A DNA stretch of 64,000 nucleotides from Escherichia coli. GTDB lineage: Bacteria; Pseudomonadota; Gammaproteobacteria; Enterobacterales; Enterobacteriaceae. The stretch lies in NCBI GenBank assembly GCA_902500055.1, contig GCA_902500055.1_4131.1; one strand, 5' to 3'. Shown here piece after piece: positions 4,466 through 22,833 of the stretch. Within the stretch, counting starts at the first letter, position 1. Every line of letters begins with the position of its first letter. Both the position numbers and the translations under genes were made by a program. The notes under the pieces are model-generated. The model was not told the DNA's origin. It did not search any database and worked only from the letters and a program-made list of their open reading frames with translations.

Positions 4466-4471
4466 ATATAG

Positions 4472-4536
4472 GCCAGTACTTGATACTGGCTTTTCTTTTT
4501 TGTATTAAATATAGTATAATGAATAAAGGAGGAAAT
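4472..4536 (+). promoter_or_regulatory. Intergenic cassette: terminator hairpin, conserved TATAAT box and SD
   Basis: Hairpin gccagtacttgatactggc (4472-4490), TATAAT at 4515-4520, ATG at 4537. Confidence 0.75.
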
Positions 4537-5727: not shown

Positions 5728-5733
5728 TATAAT

Positions 5734-5799
5734 GCCAGTACAGAGTACTGGCTTTTCTTTTTTGTATTAAATATATTATAATGAATAAAGGAGGGAATT
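5734..5799 (+). promoter_or_regulatory. Intergenic cassette: terminator hairpin, conserved TATAAT box and SD
   Basis: Hairpin gccagtacagagtactggc (5734-5752), TATAAT at 5777-5782, ATG at 5800. Confidence 0.75.
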
Positions 5800-6537
5800 A
5801 TGTTACCTTTTGGAAGAATGGTTAAGTACGGGAATAAAATTGAATATAAGCCACATGGTGAACAATTAATCACGACAATAGGAACAACACAATTTACAGT
5901 TCCTGCTGGCGTTACCGAAATATCAGTATGTGTTATTTCGCCGGGTGGTCAACGTGGTGCTGGTGGCGGCTTATCGTGGCGTAATAATATTCCGGTTACT
6001 AGTGGTGAGTACTTAAGTGTTTCTCTTACACATCCCAACACTACTACACCAGTTGAAAACGGTTTATATCGTGGAACTGAAAAACTATGTGTTAGCTTCA
6101 CTGGTGAATATAGGGTTGGTGGACTAGGTGGGAAAGCTGCTAACGCTATTAATGATGGTGGTGGTAATGGGGGCAACGCTGGTGTAAGTGGTGGTGCAGT
6201 CATTGGTGGTGGTGCTGGTGGCTACACTGGTAAAGGTGGTAACGGAGATGCAATCACTGGTGAAAATGGTGCTGGCGGCGGCGGTGGTGGTGGTGCATTC
6301 TATAATACCTCGTTCATTGGTACGGGTGGTGGTACTGGTATCATTGTTCAAGGTGCTAATGGCATTGGCGGTAGATACGATGGTTCATATAATGGTGGTG
6401 CTGGTAGTGGTGGTGCTGGTAAGATGTATGGTGGTGGTGGTAGTATATGGGATAATTTTTCTTATACGGCTGCTGGTGGTGGTGCTGTGCGAATAATATG
6501 GGGACGTGGGAGATATTATCCTAACAATTCAGTCTAA
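5800..6537 (+). CDS. Glycine-rich domain protein with the same MLPFGRMVKYGN leader (array member 6, not RCC1)
   Basis: Begins FTVPAGVTEISVCVISPGG, continues with long GGxGG tracts and ends GGGAVRIIWG. This is the layout of glycine-rich-domain proteins. Confidence 0.8.
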   Translation: MLPFGRMVKYGNKIEYKPHGEQLITTIGTTQFTVPAGVTEISVCVISPGGQRGAGGGLSWRNNIPVTSGEYLSVSLTHPNTTTPVENGLYRGTEKLCVSFTGEYRVGGLGGKAANAINDGGGNGGNAGVSGGAVIGGGAGGYTGKGGNGDAITGENGAGGGGGGGAFYNTSFIGTGGGTGIIVQGANGIGGRYDGSYNGGAGSGGAGKMYGGGGSIWDNFSYTAAGGGAVRIIWGRGRYYPNNSV

Positions 6538-6544
6538 AATATAG

Positions 6545-6608
6545 GCCAGTACAGAGTACTGGCTTTTCTTTTTGTATTAAATATAGTATAATGAATAAAG
6601 GAGGAAAT
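6545..6608 (+). promoter_or_regulatory. Intergenic cassette: terminator hairpin, conserved TATAAT box and SD
   Basis: Hairpin gccagtacagagtactggc (6545-6563), TATAAT at 6587-6592, ATG at 6609. Confidence 0.75.
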
Positions 6609-7718
6609 ATGTTACCTTTTGGGAGAATGTTAAAGTACGGGAATATAGCACCTGAAGATCCAAAGATAAAGAAAGTACTGTGCGGTCTTGATAATTTGTA
6701 CGTCCTCTATGGCGATGGCTCACTTTATGGTTGTGGGGTTAATACTTATTTTCAGTTAAACGTTGAAAATACAGCAACAAGAAATACTTGGATATTAATT
6801 TCAGAAGGTGTTACTGATGCATGGGCTGGGGCGTACAATATTCTTTATCTCAAGGGTGAAGAATTCATAATGCATGGAGTTACCACACAATTAGGCACAG
6901 GAAATACTACGATTCCGTTGGGTGGTTTGAATGTTACTTCTTCATTTCCACATATATCTAATATTAAAATGATATCAATTGGTGTAGATACAATGCACTA
7001 CGTTGATGCTAGTGGTTCGATTGTTTATGGTAGAGGCATGAATGGTAACTATTCACTCGGTGGTGGGTATTCCACGGCTCAGAGTACTTTTGTTTCAGTT
7101 ATTAATACCGGAGCTAATACAGTCCTTGATATATTGGGTACACAGAATAACACATTAATATTAACATCAAATGGTGAACTTCTCGGTTGTGGGAGTAGTG
7201 GGTATGGTTCACTTGGCGTAAGTCCAGGACAGTATACTACACTAGTAAGCAGGTTAACCAGTGTTAAACTGTTTGGTGGTAACAGTACTGGTACTCTTGC
7301 TTATTCAGCCAGCAATATATACAACGCAGGTTGGCAGTATATTGGTCAACTTGGTAACGGTATTACAACGAACACACAAGTATATCCATTTGCATTTAAC
7401 TCCACTACTATTGATAGTAAGATACATAAAATATCAAAATCAAGTGCGACTTCATATGTTAATATGTACGCAACAACCGAAGGAAAGATATACAGTACTG
7501 GTGAATTTGGTAGAAATGGTTCTGGTGGTGGTTTGAGTAGATTCACCAATACACTAACTTTAGATAATTACAACCCAGAAAAATCAGCATTATACACATG
7601 TGCACATTTTAGTATAGTATTTGATGGTAATAATCAAATTTATGCTTGTGGTTCTTTTTTGTATGTGCCAGGTCCTATTACCACGAACTCATGGTCTGCA
7701 ATTACAATGCCGAAATAA
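6609..7718 (+). CDS. RCC1-like repeat protein with MLPFGRMLKYGN leader (paralog 7)
   Basis: Contains GVNTYFQLN, GMNGNYSLGGG and GSSGYGSLG repeats. The start was set at the MLPF ATG. Confidence 0.85.
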   Translation: MLPFGRMLKYGNIAPEDPKIKKVLCGLDNLYVLYGDGSLYGCGVNTYFQLNVENTATRNTWILISEGVTDAWAGAYNILYLKGEEFIMHGVTTQLGTGNTTIPLGGLNVTSSFPHISNIKMISIGVDTMHYVDASGSIVYGRGMNGNYSLGGGYSTAQSTFVSVINTGANTVLDILGTQNNTLILTSNGELLGCGSSGYGSLGVSPGQYTTLVSRLTSVKLFGGNSTGTLAYSASNIYNAGWQYIGQLGNGITTNTQVYPFAFNSTTIDSKIHKISKSSATSYVNMYATTEGKIYSTGEFGRNGSGGGLSRFTNTLTLDNYNPEKSALYTCAHFSIVFDGNNQIYACGSFLYVPGPITTNSWSAITMPK

Positions 7719-7732
7719 TACTATAAAACTAT

Positions 7733-7796
7733 GCCAGTACTTTGTACTGGCTTTCTTATTTGTATTAAATATAGTATAATGAATAAAGGAGGAATT
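7733..7796 (+). promoter_or_regulatory. Intergenic cassette: terminator hairpin, conserved TATAAT box and SD
   Basis: Hairpin gccagtactttgtactggc (7733-7751), TATAAT at 7775-7780, ATG at 7797. Confidence 0.75.
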
Positions 7797-8966
7797 ATGT
7801 TACCTTTTGGAAGAATGTTAAAGTACGGAAATATTAAACCAACTCTTCCCGAAATAAAGAAATTGGATGGTAGTCAATTACATGTCGGATTACTTTATAG
7901 TACAGGGAATATGTATATGCGTGGTTCTGGATCGAACTACAAATTAGGAACAGGGAATGATAGTGATGTATTAGGTGGTTGGGTACATGTACCCTATGAA
8001 GTTGATGATTTTTGGGCGTGTGTATCCGGTACATTAATAAAGACGGTTGATAATAAGTTATATTGTGCCGGACTATACATGGGTGGATATTTTGGGGCTA
8101 GTGGTTCATATGTTAACTGGACTGAAGTAACTTCATTATTTGTAGGTATTGACGTGTCGCAAATAAAGAATATAGAATTTACGTCAGCAGGTACGTCAGG
8201 TAGTACACTAATATTGATGTTAGATGGTCGTTTATATGGGTTCGGTATGAACAGTAGATCTGAGTTAGGTGTTAATAACAAAGTTGTATCTCCCATTCTT
8301 ATAGATACTGGGGTAAGTGAAATAGGAGCACATAAGTTAGGCGGTTCATCGTTCCATTATATAAAAGGCGGTAAGTACTACAGATGTGGAACATCGGTTG
8401 GTAGTAATATTGGAAGTTCTTCTTTAACTACTTTTACGGTATTGAGTATTCCTGATAACGTTATATCTATGCAAATTTTATATGACAACGTACAGTTATT
8501 ATGTTTAGGAAGTTCTGGATATAGTATCTATATGGCTGGTTCTAATGATTATGGTGGAAGAGGTGTTGGTGGTTCTACTGTTTACACTACATTCAGGAAA
8601 ATAGATCTTACAGGATTTGGTGTTGTTCCCAGTGAAATACTATTTGAAAATGCCGGAAATGGTTATGTTAATATATCAACTGATAGTACTGGAGTATATA
8701 CATGTGGTGGTGGAGCGGGTGTTAACGGTTTAGGTAGACCAACTAATGTAATACCAAGTTCACAGTTGGGGGTAGTTCAGTTCAGTACTGGAGTAGAACA
8801 ATCAAATATAAGTCGTGTGTATTCACAGAGTTCGAGTTCTGTTATATATTGTATAGTCAATAATGAATTGTACTGGGCTGGGAGTAATTCATATTTTACT
8901 GATCAAACCACAAATACTGGTACACAATTTTCATTTATTAAGATGAAGAATATGCCTTCTGCTTAG
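7797..8966 (+). CDS. RCC1-like repeat protein with MLPFGRMLKYGN leader (paralog 8)
   Basis: Contains GSGSNYKLGTGN, GMNSRSELGVNN and GSNDYGGRGVGG repeats. Confidence 0.85.
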   Translation: MLPFGRMLKYGNIKPTLPEIKKLDGSQLHVGLLYSTGNMYMRGSGSNYKLGTGNDSDVLGGWVHVPYEVDDFWACVSGTLIKTVDNKLYCAGLYMGGYFGASGSYVNWTEVTSLFVGIDVSQIKNIEFTSAGTSGSTLILMLDGRLYGFGMNSRSELGVNNKVVSPILIDTGVSEIGAHKLGGSSFHYIKGGKYYRCGTSVGSNIGSSSLTTFTVLSIPDNVISMQILYDNVQLLCLGSSGYSIYMAGSNDYGGRGVGGSTVYTTFRKIDLTGFGVVPSEILFENAGNGYVNISTDSTGVYTCGGGAGVNGLGRPTNVIPSSQLGVVQFSTGVEQSNISRVYSQSSSSVIYCIVNNELYWAGSNSYFTDQTTNTGTQFSFIKMKNMPSA

Positions 8967-8973
8967 ATTTTAT

Positions 8974-9037
8974 GCCAGTACTTAACACTGGCTTTTCTTT
9001 TTGATTAAATATAGTATAATGAATAAAGGAGGATTTT
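8974..9037 (+). promoter_or_regulatory. Intergenic cassette: terminator hairpin, conserved TATAAT box and SD
   Basis: Imperfect hairpin gccagtacttaacactggc (8974-8992), TATAAT at 9015-9020, ATG at 9038. Confidence 0.7.
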
Positions 9038-10243
9038 ATGTTACCTTTTCCAAGGATGTTAAAATACGCAAATAAAATGAAAGTTCCTGAAGTGAAAGAA
9101 ATCTTTATGTACAATGGTTATAGTGCGTCAGTTATTCCAGCAACAGCACTCTTACTATTATATAAAAATGGAGACTTAATGGGTATAGGTGGAACTAGTT
9201 CACAAAACTATGGATTCGGAAATGGTGTACCTAATGCGAAAGTAAAAGAGTGGGCTTTAATATACCAAAATGTAAAACGTTTTAGAACAGCCCAAGGTTC
9301 TTTTAATTTAATCCAAACCGAAGATAATAAATTTTATTACAGTGGCGTAGGTAGAGCTATTGGTACAGGATTAAGTACTGTCAGTACTTATACTGATTGT
9401 ACTTCATATTTTACATCAGTATTCAATGCAACACAATTGTCGCAAATTAAGGACATTCAAATTGTAGGGGAGGGTATTTTTGTTTTACTTCAAAATGGTA
9501 CGCTATATGGAATGGGGGCCAATACACAGGGATATTTTGGTAATAACACAACCACAAGATTATCAACATTTACTTCAATTAATACGAATGTGGATAGTGT
9601 AAAAACAGGTTCAAGTGCAGTGATTGTGCAGAAAATTGATAAAACACTTTGGGTCACTGGTCAAAACACATGGGGTTCACTTGGTATAAGTAATGGTGAA
9701 ACTAACATTAGAGTATGGACACAAATGGGTGCATTAGCCAACAATACTGTTATACATTATGAACTTGGTGGGAGTGCATCATGGGTTGTATCTAAACACA
9801 ACACGAATAATACATATACAGTTCGTGCAAGTGGGATTCAATCGGAAGGTAACTTGGGTAATAGTTCAGCCGCTTCATCAGGGACAGTATTATCTACAAT
9901 CTCCACTCTACCAATATCAGATAATATGGAAATGAAATCAAATTCATTAACATATGGTGGGCTTACGGTTAAAACTAACAATTCACTTTATATGTGTGGT
10001 ATAAACACATATGGTAGGCTCGGTCGCGGTAATACCACATCAAGTACTACATTTGTAGTTCCAGTTGATGCACCTAAAGTTGGCAGCATCGAGTTATTCT
10101 GTCCAAGTGAATGTACAAATGTGTATATGGATAATCAAGGGGATGTGTATTTGAGTGGCTATATCCCACAAGCAGCAGGGACAACAGTTTCTGATTACTA
10201 CACTAAATTCCAATTATATCAAATACCCAGTCGTGGTATATAA
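9038..10243 (+). CDS. RCC1-like repeat protein with MLPFPRMLKYAN leader (paralog 9)
   Basis: Contains GANTQGYFGNN, GQNTWGSLGISNG and GINTYGRLGRGNTT repeats. Confidence 0.85.
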   Translation: MLPFPRMLKYANKMKVPEVKEIFMYNGYSASVIPATALLLLYKNGDLMGIGGTSSQNYGFGNGVPNAKVKEWALIYQNVKRFRTAQGSFNLIQTEDNKFYYSGVGRAIGTGLSTVSTYTDCTSYFTSVFNATQLSQIKDIQIVGEGIFVLLQNGTLYGMGANTQGYFGNNTTTRLSTFTSINTNVDSVKTGSSAVIVQKIDKTLWVTGQNTWGSLGISNGETNIRVWTQMGALANNTVIHYELGGSASWVVSKHNTNNTYTVRASGIQSEGNLGNSSAASSGTVLSTISTLPISDNMEMKSNSLTYGGLTVKTNNSLYMCGINTYGRLGRGNTTSSTTFVVPVDAPKVGSIELFCPSECTNVYMDNQGDVYLSGYIPQAAGTTVSDYYTKFQLYQIPSRGI

Positions 10244-10250
10244 AAAAAAT

Positions 10251-10315
10251 GCCAGTATTTTGTACTGGCATTTTTTTGTCCTAAATATAATAACGATTTA
10301 CATTTGGAGGATACA
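10251..10315 (+). promoter_or_regulatory. Divergent copy of the intergenic cassette
   Basis: Hairpin gccagtattttgtactggc (10251-10269) flanked by an A-run and a T-run. TATAAT at 10286-10291, GGAGGA SD, ATG at 10316. Confidence 0.6.
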
Positions 10316-11468
10316 ATGCTACCCTTTGGAAGAATTATCACATCATCAAAAAAGAACATACAACCTTCTGTAACAAAAATAGCTTCATCTGATACAACAG
10401 TTTTTGCCCTTATGTCAGATGGTACGTTGTACAGTAGAGGCTCTCAAGAGTTTGGGCAAATGGGTATAGGTAATATTATAACACAAACCAAATGGGTTTT
10501 GTGCAATACAAACGTAGAAGATATATGGGTGCGGGTATGAGTCAACCTTAATAAAAAAGAAAGATAATACGATGTGGTACGCTGGAAATGGTGCATCATT
10601 CGGATTATCAACTGATAAGTCAACAACATGGGCTTCTGCAAAGATAGTGTTTGATAGAATAACCGCCCTAGGCAAAACAATAAAACAAATTGCAGTTAGT
10701 GCAGGTGCATTAAGCGTATTATGCACAGACAACACTATATGGAATACGGGCTATGGTAGTTATGGTCAACTGGGAAATGGTAGAAGTACCGATTCACTTT
10801 CATCATTTGTACAAGGAACAGTACCTACTGGAGTAACACCATCCAAAATACTGGCAAATTTTCTTATGCAAGGATTTATTGGAACCGATGGGAGATTGTA
10901 TTATACTGGTGCAATATCAGGCGTAGGTACAACCGACATGACGTTATATTCAAAGTACACGTTATGTTCTCAAATAACTAATACCTATACGGTGAAAGAT
11001 TATACAACAAACTCAAGTTACTTCGCTTTTGCTATAGCAAGTAATAATAGTAGTAATAAATTATTTGCATATCATGGTGGTGGACAATACTTTGGTCAGT
11101 TAGCAAATGGTTCTACATCACAAACATATATTTCGTTAAGACAAACAACACAAGCACCAGGTGATATAATAAGAAGCAGTGTGGGTTATTCATATTTTTC
11201 TAATCATATTATAACTTCATTAGGTGTTTACGCAACTGGTTATAACACAGGCGATAACGCAGGTCAATTAGGTATAGGTACACAAACAGATGTCTCAGCC
11301 TATACCAAATGTGTACTACCAATAGAGATGAATATGAATAACGTATATGTTACAGCAACTTTATACAGAACTTACTTAACCGATGGTATACAAATTTACA
11401 GTACTGGACAATATGTTACAGACGGTGGAGTTGCCAGTACTGTATTTGTCAAAGATTCACCATTTTAG
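10316..11468 (+). pseudogene. RCC1-like paralog 10, reading frame broken by a +1 shift between 10518 and 10540
   Basis: The MLPFGRIITS... frame stops at 10538-10540. The +1 frame is open from 10518 and reads GCGYESTLIKKKDNTMWYAGNG, which continues the paralog alignment to 11468. Confidence 0.6.
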
Positions 11469-12111
11469 GAATATTGTACAAAGTGTATGCGGTTATTTTA
11501 GAACTCTTTTTAAATTCATCGTAAAGATAATTCAAAATTTTGGAGCATTCAATATACTTTTCAATATCTTTATGGATTAATGAGTACTGAAACATTAAAT
11601 CAGATGATATAGTGTAGGTACTACCTTTTAAACTGTTTAAAATATCACAGATTTCAGGGTTTACTGGTACTTCGTCAAAATTATCATCTAAAACATTTAT
11701 TTCAAAATCAAAGCTATCTTTGTTTTTGATTAATTTGATAATAGAATCACCATAAACATTATATTGTTTTAATGGATTTACTACAATGTTAAAAAGATTG
11801 GATGTATTACAATCAATATCCATAAAGTATGTATTATCATTGTACTTAATATTGAAACATCCGTACTCAATAAAATCACCAGGAGTTATTGATGAGTTTC
11901 TTCTCGTTTCAACATAAGAAGCTTTAATTTTGTTTTTATGTAAAAGAGTAATAAATTTCTTAGACTGTTTAGCACCAGCTAAGTAAGTATTATAACTTGG
12001 TCTTTTAAAGATTATAGGACTAGACTTCTCGCCAGAGAAATATTTTTTTATAAATTTACGTTGTTTAACAAAATAGTTTTTATAAAACAAACCTAATTTT
12101 GATTTCATCAT
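11449..12111 (-). CDS. Hypothetical protein, distant member of the F-Q-x-S motif family
   Basis: Intact 220-aa ORF, convergent with the array. Carries the C-terminal motif SDLMFQYSLI. Confidence 0.7.
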   Translation of the reverse strand: MMKSKLGLFYKNYFVKQRKFIKKYFSGEKSSPIIFKRPSYNTYLAGAKQSKKFITLLHKNKIKASYVETRRNSSITPGDFIEYGCFNIKYNDNTYFMDIDCNTSNLFNIVVNPLKQYNVYGDSIIKLIKNKDSFDFEINVLDDNFDEVPVNPEICDILNSLKGSTYTISSDLMFQYSLIHKDIEKYIECSKILNYLYDEFKKSSKITAYTLYNIPKMVNL

Positions 12112-12123
12112 AACTCCTTATAC

Positions 12124-12147
12124 ATCCAGTACTTAATAGTACTGGAT
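12124..12147. other. 10-bp perfect hairpin ATCCAGTACT-taat-AGTACTGGAT
   Basis: Inverted repeat read directly from the sequence. The T-run lies only on the + side, so its role as a minus-strand terminator is doubtful. Confidence 0.5.
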
Positions 12148-12153
12148 TTTTTA

Positions 12154-12525
12154 TTATGACATACGCTTATTATGAATGGAATTATGAATGGATTTTAAAT
12201 AATTATATAATTTTATCAATCCACTACCAGTAGCTACAAACAGTAGTGCTGTTGGTATCATACATCCAAACATGGTTATTAATTCATGTATTTCCATACC
12301 ATCACTATTTGGTCCCACATCAAATATAACAACCAAAACAACACCTAAAATGCTTAGACAATAATATCCCATAAAGACCATAAAAGTGATATATCCGGCA
12401 CTTGATTTAATATTAGATAACATATTATACACTGGATTAATACAGAAGAAGTATAATAACCATACCAGTGTTCCAGTACTGAACATAATAATTGAAATAA
12501 TGGAAAATATCTCACGGTAACTCAT
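12154..12525 (-). CDS. Small multi-pass membrane protein (TM family, cluster 1)
   Basis: Has several hydrophobic segments and a basic tail ...SIHNKRMS. It abuts its neighbour. Confidence 0.7.
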   Translation of the reverse strand: MSYREIFSIISIIMFSTGTLVWLLYFFCINPVYNMLSNIKSSAGYITFMVFMGYYCLSILGVVLVVIFDVGPNSDGMEIHELITMFGCMIPTALLFVATGSGLIKLYNYLKSIHNSIHNKRMS

Positions 12526-12526
12526 A

Positions 12527-12889
12527 TTATTTCCTCATACCCAAACGTTGGTGGATTTCAGAGATCTTTATATACAATAGTACCACAAGGTGCAGTACTA
12601 AACAACATATAATTACGGCTAATACCAATGAACATATCATAAGACCGAAGGTTATTGTATTCAAAGAGGATGTGAACAGTCCAATTATTAATACAATAAA
12701 ACCAAAATTGAATACTGTACCCAACACAGTATATGCTGGACTATATCTCTTTTGGATTACATCATATATATTTGATAATGGTCGCTTATGGAAGTACTTC
12801 CCAATGCACACGAATGCATTCAGTGAGAAGATAAATGTATACGCCATTACTAGTAATTGACCAACGAAAGATAATTCTATCCCGTTCAT
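12527..12889 (-). CDS. Small multi-pass membrane protein (TM family, cluster 1)
   Basis: The start was moved to MNGIELSF (12889), just after the upstream stop at 12891. It is hydrophobic and ends ...HQRLGMRK. Confidence 0.7.
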   Translation of the reverse strand: MNGIELSFVGQLLVMAYTFIFSLNAFVCIGKYFHKRPLSNIYDVIQKRYSPAYTVLGTVFNFGFIVLIIGLFTSSLNTITFGLMICSLVLAVIICCLVLHLVVLLYIKISEIHQRLGMRK

Positions 12890-12890
12890 A

Positions 12891-13259
12891 CTAACCTCGT
12901 TTACGTTTTTTAATTGTACTGTGCATCTTTTCGAAATAGGGAACCAAAACATATTGAACAGTTTGCCAGATAACCATTAGATTATGCACTGCACCACCAA
13001 GGATACCAAACACTAGAACAATAATTGCCATAATAGGATCACCGTCTACCATACCCCATTTAAAGATATGTAAAATCCAAGCAATGACTAGACAAAATAA
13101 ACTAAGCCAATACGTAATGAAAAATCCGGCTTGTAGTTCATAATCATCAGCAATTTCATCGTATACCGTTTCTAAAAATGATACACAAAAGAATTTACCA
13201 ATTATAACCACAGTACTAATAAACAACATAGCAGTTAAGATAATAAGAGCAATTTCCAT
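12891..13259 (-). CDS. Small multi-pass membrane protein (TM family, cluster 1)
   Basis: Hydrophobic segments with a basic tail ...STIKKRKRG. Confidence 0.7.
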   Translation of the reverse strand: MEIALIILTAMLFISTVVIIGKFFCVSFLETVYDEIADDYELQAGFFITYWLSLFCLVIAWILHIFKWGMVDGDPIMAIIVLVFGILGGAVHNLMVIWQTVQYVLVPYFEKMHSTIKKRKRG

Positions 13260-13573
13260 TACATCCCTCGTTTACGCTTTTGATTGCGTCTAAATTCTGT
13301 TAGTCCACGGCTAATCGGCGGCATCAGACTACATAAAAAAGTAACAGTTGTTGGTAGTAACATCAAGTCAATCATTGCAGTGTTATCTGGTGGATCAAAA
13401 ACCAAAAAATACACACAAGAAACACTAATAATGGTTGAACCGATAAAAGGAATACAAAATTCTTTTATCTGTTTTTCAACATAATCAAACATCTTGAGTA
13501 CAAATAAAAATCCAACCCAACACATAATGAAATAGAATGAATACAACGTGTAAATCAATGTTACTATATCCAT
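13259..13573 (-). CDS. Small multi-pass membrane protein (TM family, cluster 1)
   Basis: Hydrophobic with tail ...RRNQKRKRGM. It has a 1-nt start/stop overlap with both neighbours. Confidence 0.7.
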   Translation of the reverse strand: MDIVTLIYTLYSFYFIMCWVGFLFVLKMFDYVEKQIKEFCIPFIGSTIISVSCVYFLVFDPPDNTAMIDLMLLPTTVTFLCSLMPPISRGLTEFRRNQKRKRGM

Positions 13574-13911
13574 TAGTACCTCGCATCAGGAACTTTAGCA
13601 CGTAACTTATGAACGACTGGGAACAACAACAAACTTACATATGCAATAGTTGAACCCCAATAGAATACTAATACAATTGGTTCACCATTAGAACGGAAAC
13701 CTCTACTAATCATTGAGTAGTGAATAATAGGCATAATCATCGCCATACCAAACCATGCGTGTAATTTTAATTGCAGCATGTTATCAGCGATGAATACTGA
13801 AATTGGTCGTTTAAAGAACCACATCAGAAAGTAGAATCCAGCACTAATAATATAGTACATGGTACTAACTTTCATATACCACGGCAGTAAATCAATAAAG
13901 TACTCCATCAT
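13573..13911 (-). CDS. Small 3-TM membrane protein (TM family)
   Basis: WFFKRP motif after TM1. Tail ...HKLRAKVPDARY. Confidence 0.75.
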   Translation of the reverse strand: MMEYFIDLLPWYMKVSTMYYIISAGFYFLMWFFKRPISVFIADNMLQLKLHAWFGMAMIMPIIHYSMISRGFRSNGEPIVLVFYWGSTIAYVSLLLFPVVHKLRAKVPDARY

Positions 13912-14255
13912 TCCTCCGGTATCTTATTTCGAAGTTCAATCATAACACAACAAATTTTAATGGTCAATATAAAAGTTAAACATATCATCCCAAGTGTGCC
14001 GTAAACTGCGGAAAAAGCTGGTAGTACCTTTCCTGTGAGTGTTGCTACAATACATGCAATCAATGTTGATGCAAACAACGATTGATTAATGGCAGAATTC
14101 ATAAAATCTTCACCATTACGTTTATAGAATTGTCGTTTAAAATACCATCCTAGAAACATAACTACCCAAAATGATACATAAGTTGTTAGAATAATCCCTG
14201 CAAGTGAATGTGCAACTGAACTACTCCTTAAAAACTCAAGATAAGCTTCAAACAT
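13908..14255 (-). CDS. Small 3-TM membrane protein (TM family)
   Basis: WYFKRQ motif, tail ...ELRNKIPEE, ATGA overlap with the neighbour. Confidence 0.75.
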   Translation of the reverse strand: MFEAYLEFLRSSSVAHSLAGIILTTYVSFWVVMFLGWYFKRQFYKRNGEDFMNSAINQSLFASTLIACIVATLTGKVLPAFSAVYGTLGMICLTFILTIKICCVMIELRNKIPEE

Positions 14256-14593
14256 TAGAAGTCTCCGCGAATTTTATCTCTACCATGAATAATGAGATGG
14301 ATTAAGTATACAACTAACCAAATGAACAACCCAAAGAATACAATATATTGTGAGATTGAGTTCAAGTGAGGATTGGCACAATAAATTAAGTGTGCCATAA
14401 GACCAACAATTGCAAACAAACCTTGAACTAGTGTGTAAAGAACTAGTGATGAATTCCTTACTGGATACAGTTTAAAAACAATTTTCTTTTTAAAATACCA
14501 CAGTACTACAACCAGTGCATGATAAAAGAAAAAACCAAACAGATAAATCAAAGTAATACTAATCATTGTATCTGAATTAAAAAACTCAAGCAT
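14255..14593 (-). CDS. Small 3-TM membrane protein (TM family)
   Basis: WYFKKK motif. Tail ...HGRDKIRGDF. Confidence 0.75.
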   Translation of the reverse strand: MLEFFNSDTMISITLIYLFGFFFYHALVVVLWYFKKKIVFKLYPVRNSSLVLYTLVQGLFAIVGLMAHLIYCANPHLNSISQYIVFFGLFIWLVVYLIHLIIHGRDKIRGDF

Positions 14594-14622
14594 ATCGTAT
14601 CTCCGGTGGTGAATATTAAGTT

Positions 14623-14651
14623 ATAGTACTACCATAGTGTAGTACTGTCAA
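14623..14651 (-). promoter_or_regulatory. Sigma-70-type promoter TTGACA-N17-TACTAT
   Basis: The reverse complement reads TTGACAgtactacactatggtagTACTAT, upstream of the TM gene cluster. Confidence 0.6.
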
Positions 14652-14660
14652 TACATGTAA

Positions 14661-15434
14661 TTAAATTTTCTCAAGGAACATATTCTCTGCCATTGATTCC
14701 CAATCGTATGGGAATTTATTATACAAACCAGCGATCAGTACTGGCATACGCAGTGATGGACTACGCAAACGTTCTTCGTTGTTCAGCATCCAATTCAGGA
14801 TTGCTTTACAACCATTTTTGTTAACACCATTGTTTTCAAGGATGTTAGTTTTGTTCATGATGTTCTCAATGTGAATCATCACTTCTTCGTTGGTGAACAG
14901 TTGCAGGTCAACAAAGATACTACGAGTGATCAGTGCATCGATGTGTGGTGCTAAGCTGCTTTTACCTTTAGCAATCTGTGACAGGTTTTTGTTAGTCAGA
15001 AAGATTACTTTACCACGGAATTCAAACTGCTTAGGGATACCCTGCTGTTCCAGGTACTTAGCAGAAGTCGCGTAAGAAACTACACGCTTCTCTGACGTAT
15101 CCAACACAGCTTTAAGCAAATCAATATTAGTCTCGTCAGAGAAGATATCAACGTCATCAAGTAACAGTACTGATGCGGCATGACGTGAACGATACAGTGC
15201 TTCGTACAGACCCAAAGTAGTTACTTTACCACTGATTTTCTTGTAGTCGATTTCAAAGTTATCATCAGCTTTCTGTAACCGTTGGTCAACGTTATAAGTT
15301 TTACCAACACCACCTTTACCTGATACGATCAGAGAGTTGATAGAGTTAGCTTGTGTATCAAGAAGGCATTCCAGTGCAGCCATCATGCTATTGAAGTTTT
15401 TTTCGATTTGGATTGCTTTCTCTTGACGGGTCAT
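14661..15434 (-). CDS. P-loop NTPase (AAA-like ATPase)
   Basis: Walker A VSGKGGVGKT and Walker B VLLLDDVD. The SD AAGGAGA precedes the ATG. Confidence 0.8.
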   Translation of the reverse strand: MTRQEKAIQIEKNFNSMMAALECLLDTQANSINSLIVSGKGGVGKTYNVDQRLQKADDNFEIDYKKISGKVTTLGLYEALYRSRHAASVLLLDDVDIFSDETNIDLLKAVLDTSEKRVVSYATSAKYLEQQGIPKQFEFRGKVIFLTNKNLSQIAKGKSSLAPHIDALITRSIFVDLQLFTNEEVMIHIENIMNKTNILENNGVNKNGCKAILNWMLNNEERLRSPSLRMPVLIAGLYNKFPYDWESMAENMFLEKI

Positions 15435-15462
15435 GGTTTGTCTCCTTCGTTTCGATATAGAT

Positions 15463-15494
15463 ATAATAGCAAAAGGGCCGACCTAAGTCAACCC
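15463..15494 (-). promoter_or_regulatory. Composite hairpin element (terminator-like stem with embedded -35 TTGACT) plus TATTAT -10
   Basis: The minus sense reads GGGTTGAC-TTAG-GTCGGCCC followed by TTTTGC. TTGACT (15486-15491), N17, TATTAT (15463-15468). Confidence 0.6.
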
Positions 15495-15504
15495 TTTTTT
15501 TATT

Positions 15505-15864
15505 CTATTCTAACTCACTCATTGTGGTGATAGTTAATCCCATTTCTTCTGCAATGTTGCATAGCAAACCAACTGCATTGCGAAGAATATCAGTGTTATC
15601 CACCGAGAATGATGAGTTTTCATTTACAGTTGAAGACTCAATGTAGTACTCAAAATAACGAGAAGTTGAACGGACAACTTTAACACCTTCATACTTCTGT
15701 AGTTCAGAGTTGATACGCTCGATGAGCGAATCTTCCAGTACTCGATAGTCACCATTCATTCCACGTTTCCATCCATCAGCAGGACGGAAGTAAAACGTCT
15801 TGGTGCGTTGAACAGTACTAATTACCAGTGGATTCAGTTCAGTGATTTCAGATAAAGATGCCAT
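15505..15864 (-). CDS. Hypothetical protein
   Basis: Intact ORF tiling the minus-strand block. I recognise no motif. Confidence 0.7.
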   Translation of the reverse strand: MASLSEITELNPLVISTVQRTKTFYFRPADGWKRGMNGDYRVLEDSLIERINSELQKYEGVKVVRSTSRYFEYYIESSTVNENSSFSVDNTDILRNAVGLLCNIAEEMGLTITTMSELE

Positions 15865-15894
15865 TTCCGATTCCTCATTAGTTGGTGTACATAC

Positions 15895-15923
15895 ATAATA
15901 CAGTTAAATGAGTACGGTGTCAA
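15895..15923 (-). promoter_or_regulatory. Sigma-70-type promoter TTGACA-N17-TATTAT
   Basis: The reverse complement reads TTGACAccgtactcatttaactgTATTAT. Confidence 0.65.
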
Positions 15924-15929
15924 TACCTT

Positions 15930-16199
15930 TTACTCAACAATTCCCAACTTAACAATCTCATACCCATCGAGTTGCCCGTGGGGACACTCAGGTGTTTCAT
16001 AAGATGAACCATCATGGATGTCCTGGCATTGACTTTTGGAATTCTCAAGCAATCGTTGCAGTACTGATACGTCATCAAGAACGTAATACAAGTTAGCATA
16101 TAAGTCCGTTACAATACAGTACTCCAACATGTCAAATGTATCAATCGAAATTTCAACCTTAGCAAATCGTTTCTTTTCTTTATTATACAGTGCGTACAT
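15930..16199 (-). CDS. Hypothetical protein (paralog of 18063..18317)
   Basis: The start was moved to MYALYNKEKK (GGAGA SD 5 nt upstream). It shares the M[FY]AL.NK...YEI..L pattern with 18063..18317. Confidence 0.7.
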   Translation of the reverse strand: MYALYNKEKKRFAKVEISIDTFDMLEYCIVTDLYANLYYVLDDVSVLQRLLENSKSQCQDIHDGSSYETPECPHGQLDGYEIVKLGIVE

Positions 16200-16200
16200 A

Positions 16201-16572
16201 TTAATCTCCATAATCAAGTTTAACCAACTTACCACACAGATACCCAAAGTTTTCTGGCTTCGCATCTGAATAGAAGAAGTCAGTACTTAACTCTGAATCC
16301 AATGCTAAAGCTCACAACTCCACCCAAAATAAACCCCTATGTTGTACTGGCTTACAACGTTTCTGTACAGTTACTAGTCCAGTACATGATGACCACAACG
16401 TAGGGCAGATACCACTATTACTACGCTTGGAGTACTGCATCCACGAACGTTCATTGAGGTTAGCTATCATCCCTGTTAAGAATAGCTTCCAACTTTTAAA
16501 GGTTGGAATCTTGATAGCATATTCCCCAATGAGTATGACAGTTCGTGTTGCACCTTTCAAATCTATATTCAT
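16201..16572 (-). pseudogene. Minimal protein-kinase-like gene interrupted by an in-frame TGA (16312-16314); pseudogene or readthrough
   Basis: The N-terminal part has TRTVILIGEYAIKIP (glycine loop and VAIK-like Lys). After the in-frame TGA the same frame reads ...FFYSDAKPENFGYLCGKLVKLDYGD (catalytic D-x-K-x-x-N and DFG-like DYG). Confidence 0.55.
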
Positions 16573-16583
16573 ATTTTTTTTAA

Positions 16584-16835
16584 TTAGAAGAACACAAACC
16601 AAGTCCAGAATAAATTCCACACTACAAATAAAGACATAGTGGTTTTATGTACAATATCAGCAGTACTGGTCCATCCTCCACCGTGTCCTATTCCATTTAT
16701 GAATAGAACTAAGAACAAGATACCATTTACTACAATAGTACATAGTAAGTACACAAACACATTCCATGCAAGTTCAGGGGATACTAACGTAAATGGTAAA
16801 ACAATTAGTAGTATTAGAACTAATAAAATTTTCAT
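16584..16835 (-). CDS. Small membrane protein
   Basis: 83 aa, almost entirely hydrophobic, with an N-terminal signal/TM segment. Confidence 0.65.
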   Translation of the reverse strand: MKILLVLILLIVLPFTLVSPELAWNVFVYLLCTIVVNGILFLVLFINGIGHGGGWTSTADIVHKTTMSLFVVWNLFWTWFVFF

Positions 16836-16863
16836 TTATCGCCTCACTTAATTAACGTGACAA

Positions 16864-17040
16864 TTAGTACGAATCAGATTCCCAGTACTCGATTGCTTCT
16901 TTCAGCAATTCTTTAGCACGTTGTTTTGCAATGCGAGCGGGAAACTGATATGTGTACATTAACTGACGCTTCACTTCATTCAGCGAAAGCTGTTCATGGT
17001 ACAGTGCATCCATCAGTCGATTACGAGTACGTAGTTTCAT
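16864..17040 (-). CDS. Hypothetical 58-aa protein (below the ORF-track cutoff)
   Basis: My own translation is MKLRTRNRLMDALYHEQLSLNEVKRQL...EYWESDSY. It fills an otherwise empty gap. The + ORF 16926..17129 is antisense to it. Confidence 0.55.
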   Translation of the reverse strand: MKLRTRNRLMDALYHEQLSLNEVKRQLMYTYQFPARIAKQRAKELLKEAIEYWESDSY

Positions 17041-17051
17041 ATAAGTTATCC

Positions 17052-17606
17052 TTATTTCAAAGAATCATAGTAAGCAGTGTCAAAGATTGGAGTCATAATA
17101 ACATAGTCAATACGGTCAATGTAAGTTGAACTCCACATTTCTGGTTTGTCATATAACTGACGCTCGCGTTCATTCATACGAGTCAGTACTTCTTCCAATT
17201 TACTACGTGAAGCCATCAATGTATTACGCGATCCATAAGTGAAGTACTCAGTCCATTGATATTCATATTCAGTACTGATAGATTGAATAGTACCATCTTT
17301 GAAATGAGCTAATGCATAACCTTTCTCTACAAAGTTATCAGGTGGAAGAACACCATCTGGATTAGTTTTCAATGCTTTTTCTAACTTTTCTTTAATTTCA
17401 GTTAACGTGCATACTGAACGAATGTTCTTCAGGTTTGATACTTGAAAATCACTGTACTTTCCAAAGAAAAATACACGCCAATCTTTAGGTTCATTATCAG
17501 ATACGGTAACATCAGGATGATGGGCGAGTAAACGAAGAAGGCCAGCTTTGTGACCGTTAATGTAGATTTCATGGATGTGGTTAGCAGTTTTCTTAAAAGT
17601 AATCAT
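17052..17606 (-). CDS. Hypothetical protein
   Basis: Intact 184-aa ORF with a GAGGAA SD upstream. Confidence 0.75.
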   Translation of the reverse strand: MITFKKTANHIHEIYINGHKAGLLRLLAHHPDVTVSDNEPKDWRVFFFGKYSDFQVSNLKNIRSVCTLTEIKEKLEKALKTNPDGVLPPDNFVEKGYALAHFKDGTIQSISTEYEYQWTEYFTYGSRNTLMASRSKLEEVLTRMNERERQLYDKPEMWSSTYIDRIDYVIMTPIFDTAYYDSLK

Positions 17607-17653
17607 GGTAGTTCCTCGATTGTAGGGATGAGAAGTTCATCCCCTTGATAAGC

Positions 17654-17681
17654 ATTATACAGTACTGAATGTGTTTGTCAA
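17654..17681 (-). promoter_or_regulatory. Consensus sigma-70 promoter TTGACA-N16-TATAAT
   Basis: The reverse complement reads TTGACAaacacattcagtactgTATAAT. Confidence 0.75.
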
Positions 17682-17682
17682 C

Positions 17683-18078
17683 TCAAAATAAATTCATTTC
17701 ATGTGCGTATTGTGGTTCAAGATAAGATAAGTTTTTGAAACTGTCTTTCAATTCCGCATCATCTACGTACACAGTACCAGGTACATTCCCCATAGTGAAG
17801 CCAACCCAAACAGTCATGTTTCCAGTTCCTAAGCGGGGCATTGATAGCGTCCCGTCAGGTGAAACATCAAACGCTACACTAAAGTCATCCGTTACAACTT
17901 CCGACCCATTTTCCAGAATAATACAACCACGTTCTTTAAGCTTCTGAATGTGGATAGCAGCCTCTACAGCACGTTTAAAGTTATAATAAGACTCTTTATC
18001 CTCGAACATTGATTGTTTAACCAGACGCTTGTTTAGCTCGGTTACTTTGTGCATTTGACGCATTACTTCAACTCCCAC
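17683..18078 (-). CDS. Hypothetical protein
   Basis: Intact 131-aa ORF in the tiling. Confidence 0.7.
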   Translation of the reverse strand: MGVEVMRQMHKVTELNKRLVKQSMFEDKESYYNFKRAVEAAIHIQKLKERGCIILENGSEVVTDDFSVAFDVSPDGTLSMPRLGTGNMTVWVGFTMGNVPGTVYVDDAELKDSFKNLSYLEPQYAHEMNLF

Positions 18079-18317
18079 AGTTGTAGAATTTCATAAGAGC
18101 CTGGTGGTGCTGGATTGATAATCTCAGGGTATTCAGTACTGTTAGGATTACCACCAGCATTGAACTCAGCAAGTAATAATTCGAGTTCATTCCTATCATG
18201 AACAACAAACACGCAATATCCAGTTCCTTCTTCAAGAACTGTAGTTGATCCCGCACAATCCCATACGGTATCAATACATAATAATTCTTTAGTGTTTTTA
18301 TTACGCAACGCAAACAT
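18063..18317 (-). CDS. Hypothetical protein (paralog of 15930..16199)
   Basis: Intact 84-aa ORF. The overlapping 137-aa ORF 18068..18481 has low-complexity composition and was rejected. Confidence 0.7.
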   Translation of the reverse strand: MFALRNKNTKELLCIDTVWDCAGSTTVLEEGTGYCVFVVHDRNELELLLAEFNAGGNPNSTEYPEIINPAPPGSYEILQLWELK

Positions 18318-18326
18318 ATATGTCTC

Positions 18327-18671
18327 CTATCGATTCGGCATATTCTTTCGTAGTCGCAAGAGAAATTCAACCACTGACCATGTTGTAATGAAGGCAATAT
18401 AAGTTGCAAGGAATCCAGTAAGAATAAATGCAACCAGCGTACTACCATTTGGGGAATCAGTTTTAATGCCGATGACACCATCGGCTACAGTGAAACATGT
18501 AGCCATTAATGTGTAACCTACGTACAACACAAAGAAAAACTCATTCTCCATTGAAGGATAGAAACGGTTAAACACTTTATAAAATTTAAAGTACAGTAGG
18601 ATTATACCAACAAAGGCATAGAATGTAAACAGTGTTGTTATAATATATGAGATTAGGTTCAAATTATACAT
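18327..18671 (-). CDS. Small 3-TM membrane protein (TM family, cluster 2)
   Basis: The start was moved to MYNLNLISY (GGAG SD). YFKFYKVFNRFYP motif and tail ...LRKNMPNR. Confidence 0.75.
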   Translation of the reverse strand: MYNLNLISYIITTLFTFYAFVGIILLYFKFYKVFNRFYPSMENEFFFVLYVGYTLMATCFTVADGVIGIKTDSPNGSTLVAFILTGFLATYIAFITTWSVVEFLLRLRKNMPNR

Positions 18672-18672
18672 A

Positions 18673-19020
18673 TCAACGCTCCGGTAGATTATCACGTAAT
18701 GTTTTAATTCGATGATACATTTTCATACCAATATTACCAAAGATACCATATCCAAGTACTAAAATGTATGCAATAAGCATAGTAATAATTACTATAGTGC
18801 CAAAACTATAATGTACACTACTGATACCCATTGTAGTTTCAACGATTATTTGAGAAACTGAAAGAATCAAAAGTACAACTACAATTGGATGATTTGGGTA
18901 CATTCGGTTGAACAACGTTTTGTACTTAAAGAAGCACAGTACTCCACCGAATAAGAAGTAAACAATGTAAATGCAAGCAACAGCATAGGCAAACATGTTA
19001 GTGTAATAAATCATTTCCAA
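18673..19020 (-). CDS. Small 3-TM membrane protein (TM family, cluster 2)
   Basis: FFKYKTLFNRMYP motif. Tail ...LRDNLPER. Confidence 0.75.
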   Translation of the reverse strand: MEMIYYTNMFAYAVACIYIVYFLFGGVLCFFKYKTLFNRMYPNHPIVVVLLILSVSQIIVETTMGISSVHYSFGTIVIITMLIAYILVLGYGIFGNIGMKMYHRIKTLRDNLPER

Positions 19021-19023
19021 TCC

Positions 19024-19362
19024 TTACTTTTCAGGGATATTAGAACGCCATATATCAATGCGATGAACTAGTCCAAAGAACAACCATACTGGAACGGCAG
19101 CTATCATAACAACAAATGAAAACCCAGTCAACACCGATACCAGATTTAATTCATCAGTACTATACCCACATATCAGTACTTCTAATATTCCCCACGTACA
19201 TGCACAAAACATCAAGAATGAAATTGGGGCATCATAGTAGATACGTTCATATAAAGTAGTATATCGGAAGAATGCAATAATATAGCAAAACATATAATAC
19301 ACCCAAACCAAAGATACTACATAAAATGATACTTTGTTTATTAATTCAAAATATTGTTCCAT
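19024..19362 (-). CDS. Small 3-TM membrane protein (TM family, cluster 2)
   Basis: FFRYTTLYERIYY motif. Tail ...WRSNIPEK. Confidence 0.75.
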   Translation of the reverse strand: MEQYFELINKVSFYVVSLVWVYYMFCYIIAFFRYTTLYERIYYDAPISFLMFCACTWGILEVLICGYSTDELNLVSVLTGFSFVVMIAAVPVWLFFGLVHRIDIWRSNIPEK

Positions 19363-19364
19363 TT

Positions 19365-19646
19365 TTACCCCAATATATATTCAGAGAGTAATGTATTAGC
19401 TTCATCTTTGTTCTTAAGGTAATACATGTAATATAGATTCGGTTCACCATCTTTAGAACTCAAATCGAAGTACTTTAAACTATGTACTTTCATAGTAAAA
19501 ACAAATAATGACTTAAAACCAATCTCACCGTACTTAATAAACAGTTCATCCAAATGAATGTAACTTTTTGATTTGGATAATTCTTTAACGTCTGCATCAA
19601 TTTCAGATAAAAGATGCTTACCTATTAAGTTTTCAAATGAACGCAT
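19365..19646 (-). CDS. Hypothetical protein
   Basis: Intact 93-aa ORF in the tiling. Confidence 0.7.
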   Translation of the reverse strand: MRSFENLIGKHLLSEIDADVKELSKSKSYIHLDELFIKYGEIGFKSLFVFTMKVHSLKYFDLSSKDGEPNLYYMYYLKNKDEANTLLSEYILG

Positions 19647-19682
19647 GATTTTATCCTTTACCGCAATTTTTATGGTTTATTA

Positions 19683-19711
19683 AGAATACACCAGAACATC
19701 AGTTCTGTCAA
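19683..19711 (-). promoter_or_regulatory. Possible sigma-70 promoter TTGACA-N17-TATTCT
   Basis: The reverse complement reads TTGACAgaactgatgttctggtgTATTCT. The -10 is weak. Confidence 0.4.
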
Positions 19712-20349
19712 TAAAAAACTGGATCTTCTTCAGTAACTGGTATTTCTCTACGTACATCACACGAAAGAGGATCAGTAATGAATACATTGCCATCTTTATC
19801 CATCATCACATTACTTGAATGAATGTCTGGTACAAAACGCCCGTGAAACTCTTTCATGATGTTAGCAGCGACCGTTGCAATAGCAATCTCTTCAGAATTT
19901 CCACGCATATCATTCACTGAAGTAGCGTACTGACCAGCATGTGCATAAGAATATAAATCTCCAATTTTAGTACTAACAAAGTCATCATAATTATTTTTTT
20001 GTTTAATTATAGGATAGTACTTGTCCATCTCATACCATCCAAAGTTTCCTTGTTCGTTGGCACTGTAGATCACTGGAAGAAACTTGGTTCCTGCGTTTTC
20101 AATGCAGTACTTTGCATAAGCACGAAAACCATCCCAGCGTGAAGTGGTTACTTTAAATGCACGTCCAGGATAGTTTTTATGTTCAACTACTACAGAGTAC
20201 ATCCCCATTCCAAGCAAAGTAAGTCCAGCAGCTTTAACTTGTGGAAAGATTACGCGTTCAGCATAAGGAATATCAAACTCCATCGCACAACGAGTTTTTG
20301 ATGGACGCAAAATGTCAATTAAAGTTTTGAATATGTCTTGCTTAGTCAT
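19708..20349 (-). CDS. Protein-kinase-like protein (atypical, short)
   Basis: GMGMYSVVV...GRAFKV (glycine loop and Lys) and FVPDIHSSNVMMDKDGNVFITDP (catalytic D-x-H-x-x-N and a DFG-like motif). The start was set at MTKQD after a GAGGA SD. Confidence 0.6.
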   Translation of the reverse strand: MTKQDIFKTLIDILRPSKTRCAMEFDIPYAERVIFPQVKAAGLTLLGMGMYSVVVEHKNYPGRAFKVTTSRWDGFRAYAKYCIENAGTKFLPVIYSANEQGNFGWYEMDKYYPIIKQKNNYDDFVSTKIGDLYSYAHAGQYATSVNDMRGNSEEIAIATVAANIMKEFHGRFVPDIHSSNVMMDKDGNVFITDPLSCDVRREIPVTEEDPVFY

Positions 20350-22276: not shown

Positions 22277-22573
22277 TTAGTAGTTACAGTCAGCTTTCGC
22301 TGTGAATGTTTTACTTTCTCCGCGTTGTGTGGTGATTCGTCCGAGTAAAGTAGTTTTGTCAATAGTCATTGTAGTTAGTACTGGAACATTACCTTCAAAG
22401 TCAATAGCTTTGAAATTGTAGGTGGTTTCATTCTCCACTACACTTGGACCAAAGAGTTCATATGTGTTGATTTCAAGTGTGTCACCATCTGAACGCAACA
22501 GTGTGCAGTCCAGATTAGGAGTAGCCAGTACAGGGAAAGCCAAACACATTATCATTGCTATAATTAATTTCAT
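22277..22573 (-). CDS. Small secreted protein (signal peptide)
   Basis: N-terminus MKLIIAMIMCLAFPVLATP. Related in pattern to 26448..26798 and 27191..27550. Confidence 0.7.
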   Translation of the reverse strand: MKLIIAMIMCLAFPVLATPNLDCTLLRSDGDTLEINTYELFGPSVVENETTYNFKAIDFEGNVPVLTTMTIDKTTLLGRITTQRGESKTFTAKADCNY

Positions 22574-22833
22574 TTCACTTCTCCTGATTTTTTCTTAGGA
22601 TCAACCAATGACCAAATGAAGAATCCGAGAATTACAAGTACCCACAGAATCATGATAAAGAAAGCAAACAGTACAATAGTATTTGTCAAAAAGAAATACA
22701 ATAGAATGTTCGACCCAATACTACATACAATCAATGCAGCTTCATGTTTAACAACACGAATGGCTGTAATGAGTGCGGGAAGAAATCCGACAAATAACAG
22801 TACTAACGCATATAGTGATAATGTTTCAGCCAT
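22570..22833 (-). CDS. Small membrane protein
   Basis: 87 aa with three hydrophobic segments. ATGA overlap with the downstream gene. Confidence 0.7.
   Translation of the reverse strand: MAETLSLYALVLLFVGFLPALITAIRVVKHEAALIVCSIGSNILLYFFLTNTIVLFAFFIMILWVLVILGFFIWSLVDPKKKSGEVK

Follow-up and report, generated by a model that had tools for sequence, protein, structure and literature searches.

Several small membrane proteins are known through which phages, or plasmids, act within the bacterial inner membrane. T4 Imm, P22 SieA and HK97 gp15 are phage proteins of this kind, made outside the late programme, and the envelope on which they act is that of an infected cell or a lysogen. Class I holins of the lambda S105 type, also phage-encoded and about 105 amino acids (aa) long, have three transmembrane (TM) domains, an N-out/C-in arrangement, and a charged, cationic C-terminal tail lying in the cytoplasm. 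The E1-type colicin immunity proteins (Cei, Iia), which act within the inner membrane too, consist of about 110 aa with three TM segments; their genes reside on plasmids, each with a toxin gene as partner, and their reported topology is opposite to N-out/C-in. Here we consider ten genes, P1 to P10, carried by the minus strand of a 64,000-nucleotide stretch of DNA filed under Escherichia coli (GenBank assembly GCA_902500055.1, contig GCA_902500055.1_4131.1; the window, in what follows). Their products, 104 to 123 aa long, resemble all of these systems in outline and none in sequence. By profile comparison they are true, old paralogues and make up a single lineage-specific family whose members are about 110 aa long.

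The window is DNA of an Asteriusvirus jumbo coliphage (121Q/PBECO4/phAPEC6 group), the closest relative being vB_EcoM_E9.1 (E9.1 below), with 99% identity to the DNA of the first gene cluster. A search with positions 12000-20000 yields 44 phage records, of which 25 cover at least 80% of the query; they come from jumbo myoviruses of the same group, with Klebsiella RaK2-like phages matching more weakly. Cluster 1 comprises, in the order of reading, P1 (14255-14593, 112 aa), P2 (13908-14255, 115 aa), P3 (13573-13911, 112 aa), P4 (13259-13573, 104 aa), P5 (12891-13259, 122 aa), P6 (12527-12889, 120 aa) and, as its last gene, P7 (12154-12525, 123 aa). Cluster 2, a separate operon 3.7 kb away, holds P8 (19024-19362, 112 aa), P9 (18673-19014, 113 aa) and P10 (18327-18671, 114 aa), the latter two starting with the ATG at 19014 and at 18671. 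For P6 the mechanical open reading frame (ORF) extends to 12952; its start was set at the ATG at 12889 because a Shine-Dalgarno (SD) sequence is present there (GAGG, 7 nucleotides (nt) upstream) and because orthologues of 363 nt are annotated in 121Q, E9.1 and WPEC3. The genes are as tightly packed as the initial annotation had it, with overlaps restricted to four junctions: 1 nt at P1/P2, 4 nt (ATGA) at P2/P3 and 1 nt each at P3/P4 and P4/P5. Spacers of 1 nt are found at P5/P6, P6/P7 and P9/P10, and one of 9 nt at P8/P9. Cluster 2 is the middle of a longer operon, in which P8 starts 2 nt past the end of a 93-aa gene (19365-19646), the next gene (18063-18317) begins 9 nt past P10, and more genes follow. 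Every gene has an SD of the GGAG/GAGG type within or just past the final codons of the gene before it; since each ribosome-binding site sits in such tail codons, translation of the array genes would be coupled. Compared with WPEC3 orthologues, at about 85% DNA identity, ratios of nonsynonymous to synonymous substitution (dN/dS) range from 0.09 to 0.37 over the ten genes (P1 0.21, P3 0.18, P6 0.33), as against 0.03 for the adjacent gene of a nucleoside triphosphatase (NTPase). The ten ORFs are real genes under purifying selection, looser than that on the NTPase gene.

Homology among the ten is not apparent at first sight. Pairwise BLASTP is convincing only for P8, P9 and P10 and is too weak to decide the matter; profiles were therefore used, one per orthologue group, made from orthologues of CRJP21, 121Q, WPEC3, A4, JNE01, RaK2 and Muenster together with database hits. 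PHROGs splits the ten into seven families, with full-length hidden Markov model (HMM) matches of about 4e-51 to 9e-70 for P1 to P5 and P7 to P9. These are phrog_19454 for P1 (2.6e-53), phrog_19046 for P2 (6.6e-51, with phrog_16874, 'membrane protein', at 7e-6), phrog_27396 for P3, phrog_33258 for P4, phrog_26405 for P5 and weakly for P6 (0.046), phrog_27618 for P7, and phrog_19285 for P8 (3.9e-59), P9 (1.4e-58) and P10 (3.3e-4). By contrast, profile-profile comparison with hhalign unites them. The profile of P2, the hub of clade A (P1-P3 and P8-P10), matches P1 at 87%, P3 at 97%, P4 at 89%, P8 at 92%, P9 at 84% and P10 at 79%, while that of P5, in clade B (P5-P7), matches P6 at 86% and P7 at 93%. 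Values within cluster 2 are 99% (P8-P9), 97% (P8-P10) and 98% (P9-P10), and in these comparisons between orthologue groups the highest score of a reversed-sequence control is 17.5. Merged clade A matches merged clade B at 94.3% over 104 columns, where the reversed control reaches 3%. P4, the most divergent member, forms a group of its own that matches clade A at 87% and clade B at 81%. Leaving out one group at a time gives 94.5-97.5% (P1 95%, P7 97%, and P4 94.5% over 98 columns). Eight other small membrane ORFs of the window, taken as a specificity control, stay below 1%, and the family HMMs have no match among the other 229 window ORFs. It is because of these profile matches, seen against the reversed, small-ORF and window-ORF controls, that the ten are regarded as old paralogues, as the initial annotation had proposed for ten small three-pass proteins.

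No known family could be assigned to them in Pfam, NCBIfam or PDB sequences, in agreement with that first impression. Pfam and NCBIfam return only sub-threshold noise for the ten proteins, and a profile search of PDB sequences returns a single match, MscS, at E = 4.5. With Foldseek, the best match in BFVD, insignificant at E = 1.8, is a putative membrane protein of phage CBB, and matches in the PDB are DgkA-like three-helix structures with E > 1. The PHROGs to which the proteins do correspond (19454, 19046, 27396, 33258, 26405, 27618, 19285 and 16874) contain orthologues or paralogues located at the same place, after the NTPase gene, in related jumbo phages, and the depositors of phages Muenster and CBB have already labelled these relatives 'putative membrane protein' (TMHMM, three TM domains). 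In kind, then, the finding is ordinary: the annotations of related phages already show this orphan family as putative membrane proteins. The new elements are the joining of the ten into one family, and the topology, age and promoter class now attached to it. Most of the early genes that jumbo phages carry are orphans, among which small membrane proteins are the hardest to annotate. What databases present as at least seven unrelated hypothetical families becomes, with the profile comparisons, one family, old and expanded, which selection maintains and for which topology and promoter type are defined.

Each of the ten proteins displays three Kyte-Doolittle hydrophobic segments, the first being aromatic-rich and of weaker hydropathy score in P3. 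Counting lysines and arginines together, nine of the ten have 0-1 in the N-terminal tail and 3-5 in loop 1, while loop 2 again has 0-1 and the C-terminal tail 3-7; acidic or polar residues occupy the N-tail and loop 2. Because of this distribution the positive-inside rule predicts an N-out/C-in topology, which is also what the depositors of Klebsiella phage Muenster wrote on most of the orthologues ('TMHMM: 3 TMDs; N-out, C-in'). AlphaFold2 models are all-helical for both proteins modelled, with three long helices and a short loop helix in P8 (predicted local distance difference test, pLDDT, 72) and three long helices in P5 (pLDDT 68). An aromatic-basic motif of the type [WF][YF]FK[RK] follows TM1 in six to seven of the proteins, not in all as first described. 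It reads WYFKKK in P1 and WYFKR in P2; among the cluster-2 type sequences, P8 has FFRY after TM1, P9 carries FFKYKTLFNRMYP and P10 YFKFYKVFNRFYP. A tail of the form R-x-[NK]-x-P-[DEN], which had been noted as frequent, ends five of the ten (RNKIPEE in P2, RAKVPDARY in P3, RSNIPEK in P8, RDNLPER in P9, RKNMPNR in P10); P4 to P7 have K/R-rich tails instead, such as RRNQKRKRGM in P4 and IKKRKRG in P5. That this tail should be a mere by-product of the SD needed by the next gene was considered and rejected in part: the tails of P2, P3 and P9 do encode an SD (CCGGAGG and similar), but I-P-E-K in P8 is written ATC CCT GAA AAG, the SD lying past the stop codon. Among orthologues, TM1 and the predicted cytoplasmic loop 1 are best conserved and TM3 least, and the motifs of loop 1 and of the C-tail, both on the cytoplasmic side, are common to a subset of the paralogues.

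The array is old and has a narrow distribution. In RaK2 and Muenster the same order is met after the NTPase gene: two P2-like genes, then P1, P3, P4, P5/6 and P7, then a weak P8-like gene (E about 4e-4 to 8e-4), a hint that both clusters of the window may go back to a single array. The order P3-P4-P5/6-P7, with one-to-one orthologues, is kept from E. coli to Klebsiella phages. In Pectobacterium phage CBB three to four weaker relatives are grouped around this NTPase gene. Related genes are 121Q gp207-209 and gp224-232, RaK2 ORF309-316, Muenster 554-561, and CBB_539 with CBB_543-545. Copy number varies accordingly: 3-4 in CBB, 8 in RaK2/Muenster and A4, 10 in the window, E9.1, phAPEC6 and WPEC3, 11 in 121Q and CRJP21. 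The eleventh member, 48% identical to P1, stands between the promoter and P1 in 121Q (4094-4435 of the locus), CRJP21 (4093-4434 of the locus) and a number of further isolates. The window has no such gene between 14593 and 14661, nor is it present in E9.1, phAPEC6 and PBECO4, despite 97-99% identity otherwise, a case of presence/absence polymorphism. Further, 121Q has a split P4, Salmonella phage SD-1_S14 lacks P2 and shows an internal deletion in P10, and protein databases contain truncated variants (P0029, P0031, P0036). Searching with P7 by tblastn yields matches only in Asteriusvirus and Alcyoneusvirus. Broader searches return close Asteriusvirus relatives and nothing else, as 29 clusters in a word-indexed search of 5.8 billion proteins and as 15 matches in an exhaustive HMMER search of 1.84 billion representatives, and an IMG/VR scan with the cluster-2 alignment finds only 121Q itself. 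To judge from these comparisons the array is ancient and the family, which arose by old tandem duplication, is confined to this giant-phage clade. The number of copies, called unusual in the initial annotation, is so only in relative terms: the same window has ten paralogues of another kind, RCC1-like, and paralogues make up about 10% of RaK2's gene products (PMC3622015).

Both clusters are preceded by promoters of the sigma-70 type. That of cluster 1 (minus strand, 14623..14651), lying in the 67 nt that separate P1 from the NTPase gene, consists of TTGACA, a 17-nt spacer and TACTAT, and scores 10 of 12 in the scan. Its spacer holds an inverted repeat, AGTACTAC..GTAGTACT, and the -35 box, the palindromic spacer and the -10 box are kept in CRJP21, 121Q, WPEC3 and the diverged JNE01, where the -10 box is TACAAT. 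The pattern TTGACAGTACT has 16 matches with at most one mismatch, against 2.1 expected. This promoter, first described as serving the whole set, is real and conserved in relatives, but it can serve cluster 1 only; the cluster-2 operon has its own (minus strand, 19683..19711), again TTGACA with a 17-nt spacer (TTGACAGAACT...TATTCT), the spacer containing the inverted repeat CAGAAC..GTTCTG. No intrinsic terminator was found on the minus strand after P7, so transcription probably continues into the gene at 11449-12111; a hairpin at 12124-12147 was rejected as terminator of the array, its T-run being only on the plus strand. A different motif, TAAATATAGTATAAT, which resembles the late promoters of T4, precedes seven plus-strand RCC1-like genes. 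It has 9 matches in the window against 1.5 expected; the 7 that are exact or nearly so belong without exception to the plus strand of the RCC1-like array, and the motif is absent from the region of the membrane-protein array. As for the virion, none of the phAPEC6 orthologues (gp012c-017c and gp028c-029c) is in the virion proteome table of that phage (PMC7247149). Because the promoters are of the sigma-70 type, unlike the late-type motif, and the proteins are absent from the phAPEC6 virion proteome, we infer early, non-structural expression. The region had been called early-type from the start, and the description holds, both for the promoters and for the T7 gp0.7-like kinase gene directly upstream of the cluster-2 operon.

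What might such proteins do? We tentatively favour, at somewhat less than an even chance, the view that the ten are early accessory proteins of the inner membrane, modifiers of the host envelope that act individually on inner-membrane targets. Both units would be read early in infection by the host RNA polymerase from their sigma-70-type promoters. The products would insert in the host inner membrane with the short acidic N-tail and the polar or acidic loop 2 facing the periplasm, and with the basic aromatic loop after TM1 and the cationic C-tail facing the cytoplasm. The paralogues would differ in the target that they bind, for instance a port through which competitors bring in their DNA, an effector of defence or a toxin effector anchored in the membrane, or a transporter. 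By shutting out competitors, neutralizing defences that act at the membrane or reprogramming transport, they would leave the infected cell protected or reconditioned in the manner of T4 Imm, P22 SieA or HK97 gp15. We lean to this account because of the early-type host-takeover context, the absence from the virion, the variable copy number and the apparent dispensability of single members. The likeness to Imm has its bounds: Imm has two TM helices and a single-copy gene, whereas the present family has three and ten members, without homology, and neither the Imm family nor the colicin immunity families match in Pfam. In the literature searched we found no experimental data on exclusion of other phages by these proteins, and no transcriptome of, or functional work on, these genes. 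Three points tell against the envelope-modifier account. A family shaped purely by an arms race should turn over rapidly, whereas here Asteriusvirus and Alcyoneusvirus keep one-to-one orthologues in the same order and the genes are under purifying selection; for early timing the promoter motifs are the sole sign, no transcriptome of this phage group having been found; and some of the apparent gene losses could be sequencing errors, the genomes being of draft quality. Be that as it may, the genes offer a tractable set of targets for learning how therapy-relevant phages of E. coli and Klebsiella remodel the host envelope, and should any of them block other phages or the membrane defences of the host, new tools and rules for the design of phage cocktails would follow.

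The main rival, to which we give about one chance in four, is that the paralogues are subunits of one hetero-oligomeric complex of the inner membrane, a channel or platform, perhaps working with the NrdC.10-like NTPase encoded next to them, with translational coupling fixing the ratios of the subunits. That almost every junction has an overlap or a spacer of 1 nt, with internal SDs, speaks in its favour, as do the order P3-P4-P5/6-P7 and the one-to-one orthology kept for so long between E. coli and Klebsiella phages. Better conservation of TM1 and loop 1, and motifs of loop 1 and C-tail common to a subset of paralogues, are further points for it, and within the RaK2-like clade the array is always beside the NTPase gene. 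It is difficult, by contrast, to reconcile a complex with copy numbers of 3-4, 8, 10 or 11 and with single members absent or broken in near-identical genomes, or with three members placed in a separate operon. The NTPase itself is found without the array in phage records that number more than 1,300 and are for the most part T4-like, and likewise in XaC1 and PA5oct. A stricter form, in which RaK2-like jumbo phages make early in infection a phage-built hetero-oligomeric machine with every subunit in a fixed place and the NTPase perhaps powering it, seems improbable; if true, it would be a previously undescribed viral membrane complex.

The idea that the holin or antiholin of these phages, timing their lysis, is to be sought among the ten, in one member or several, is slightly less probable still. 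Size, predicted topology and cationic C-tail all fit the class I architecture, as far as hydropathy, K/R distribution and the TMHMM notes on orthologues can predict it, and lysis genes are scattered in T4-related phages. In RaK2, moreover, homologues of the T holin and of the RI antiholin are reported absent (PMC3622015). However, the promoters are of the sigma-70 type and not of the late type, and no endolysin or spanin is annotated in the 49 kb of E9.1 that cover the region. No holin model of Pfam or NCBIfam was matched at E up to 1, and the ten proteins lack the dual-start motif with its intervening basic residue. Ten copies expressed together and early are hard to square with a lethal hole-former, and the authors of the fEgEco12 study assign a holin elsewhere, leaving the array as hypothetical proteins (PMC13070987). 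Of the functions put forward in the initial annotation (superinfection exclusion, a channel, a holin-like action, blocking of host sensors), the holin-like one is thus weakened by promoter type and context.

We hold it equally doubtful that the ten are immunity-like proteins neutralizing, within the bilayer, membrane-damaging proteins such as pore-forming colicins, ionophores of contact-dependent inhibition (CDI) systems or depolarizing effectors of abortive infection. In size and number of TM segments they are similar to the E1-type colicin immunity proteins, and many diversified paralogues would suit many different toxins, but the predicted N-out/C-in topology is the opposite of that reported for the E1 type. 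Ionophoric CDI toxins are reported to have small immunity proteins of the multi-pass kind (PMC11630599). Against such a role, no Pfam family of colicin immunity proteins is matched, and no toxin partner gene lies nearby, the neighbours being phage genes of unknown function. As for the weakest alternative, that the ten are unrelated small hydrophobic ORFs with nothing in common but the composition of membrane proteins, the non-significant BLASTP of most pairs and the seven separate PHROGs families might suggest it, but full-length profile-profile matches of 80-97% (against at most 3% for reversed controls), values below 1% for the eight other small TM ORFs of the window and HMM cross-hits confined to the ten refute it, so that it keeps a barely perceptible likelihood.

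The NTPase gene that precedes cluster 1 (minus strand, 14661..15434) codes for a P-loop protein of 257 aa (phrog_1250), about 41% identical to NrdC.10 of T4 and T6. It precedes the array in RaK2, Muenster, A4, JNE01, WPEC3 and CBB. No array is found beside it in T6, XaC1 and PA5oct, and a firm functional link between array and NTPase is therefore not established and was rejected. Apart from the kinase, all the operon neighbours belong to PHROGs of unknown function. In E9.1 the array region is part of a long one-directional block of small hypothetical genes which also carries a sigma factor gene, denV and the T7 gp0.7-like protein kinase gene, and which abuts an array of genes for RCC1-like virion proteins on the opposite strand. 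The same early-type block of the window has, on its minus strand, at least eight further small ORFs with two to four hydrophobic segments: three in a row at 26801-27178, 27629-27955 and 28016-28255, and others at 22570-22833, 37279-37704, 37701-38123, 16584-16835 and 59299-59496. The eight are unrelated to the family of ten (hhalign below 1%).

On the plus strand, the RCC1-like array consists of ten consecutive ORFs (75-11468), paralogues annotated in relatives as RCC1-like ('DNA condensation'), and directly adjoins the membrane-protein array. Several of the orthologues are virion proteins of phAPEC6 (PMC7247149). Its last gene (10572-11468) converges with the 220-aa gene downstream of P7 (minus strand, 11449-12111), the two overlapping by 20 nt (11449-11468). 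The gaps between the RCC1-like genes are built in a uniform way, a terminator hairpin (GCCAGTACTnnAGTACTGGC and a T-run) being followed by an invariant TAAATATAGTATAAT, at 840-911, 3225-3277, 4466-4518, 5728-5799, 6538-6590 and 8967-9037; a further copy of the motif (7766-7780) is seen without a hairpin. On the minus strand, hairpins are combined with early-type promoters. At 15498-15471 and 20413-20388 a -35 box TTGACT lies in the 5' arm of a terminator-like stem-loop (AAAAGGGTTGACTTAGGTCGGCCCTTTT) and is followed by a -10 box, and at 14651-14623 and 19711-19683, in front of the two membrane-protein clusters, the spacer is filled by an inverted repeat. Such combinations may be compact terminator/promoter units or operator sites.

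A last observation concerns the palindrome AGTACT, the most over-represented hexamer of the window. Its 193 sites compare with about 22 that base composition alone would predict, and it is found 5.2 times more often than a second-order Markov model would have it. The sites are distributed over all three coding frames and intergenic DNA, for example at 850/858, 3234/3242, 12128/12138 and 14625/14641. We found no paper on this enrichment. It is absent in PA5oct and T6 (0 sites). An excess of 8 to 15 times is common to 121Q-like phages, RaK2, Muenster, CBB and Xanthomonas phage XaC1, and looks like a clade-wide signal at the level of DNA.

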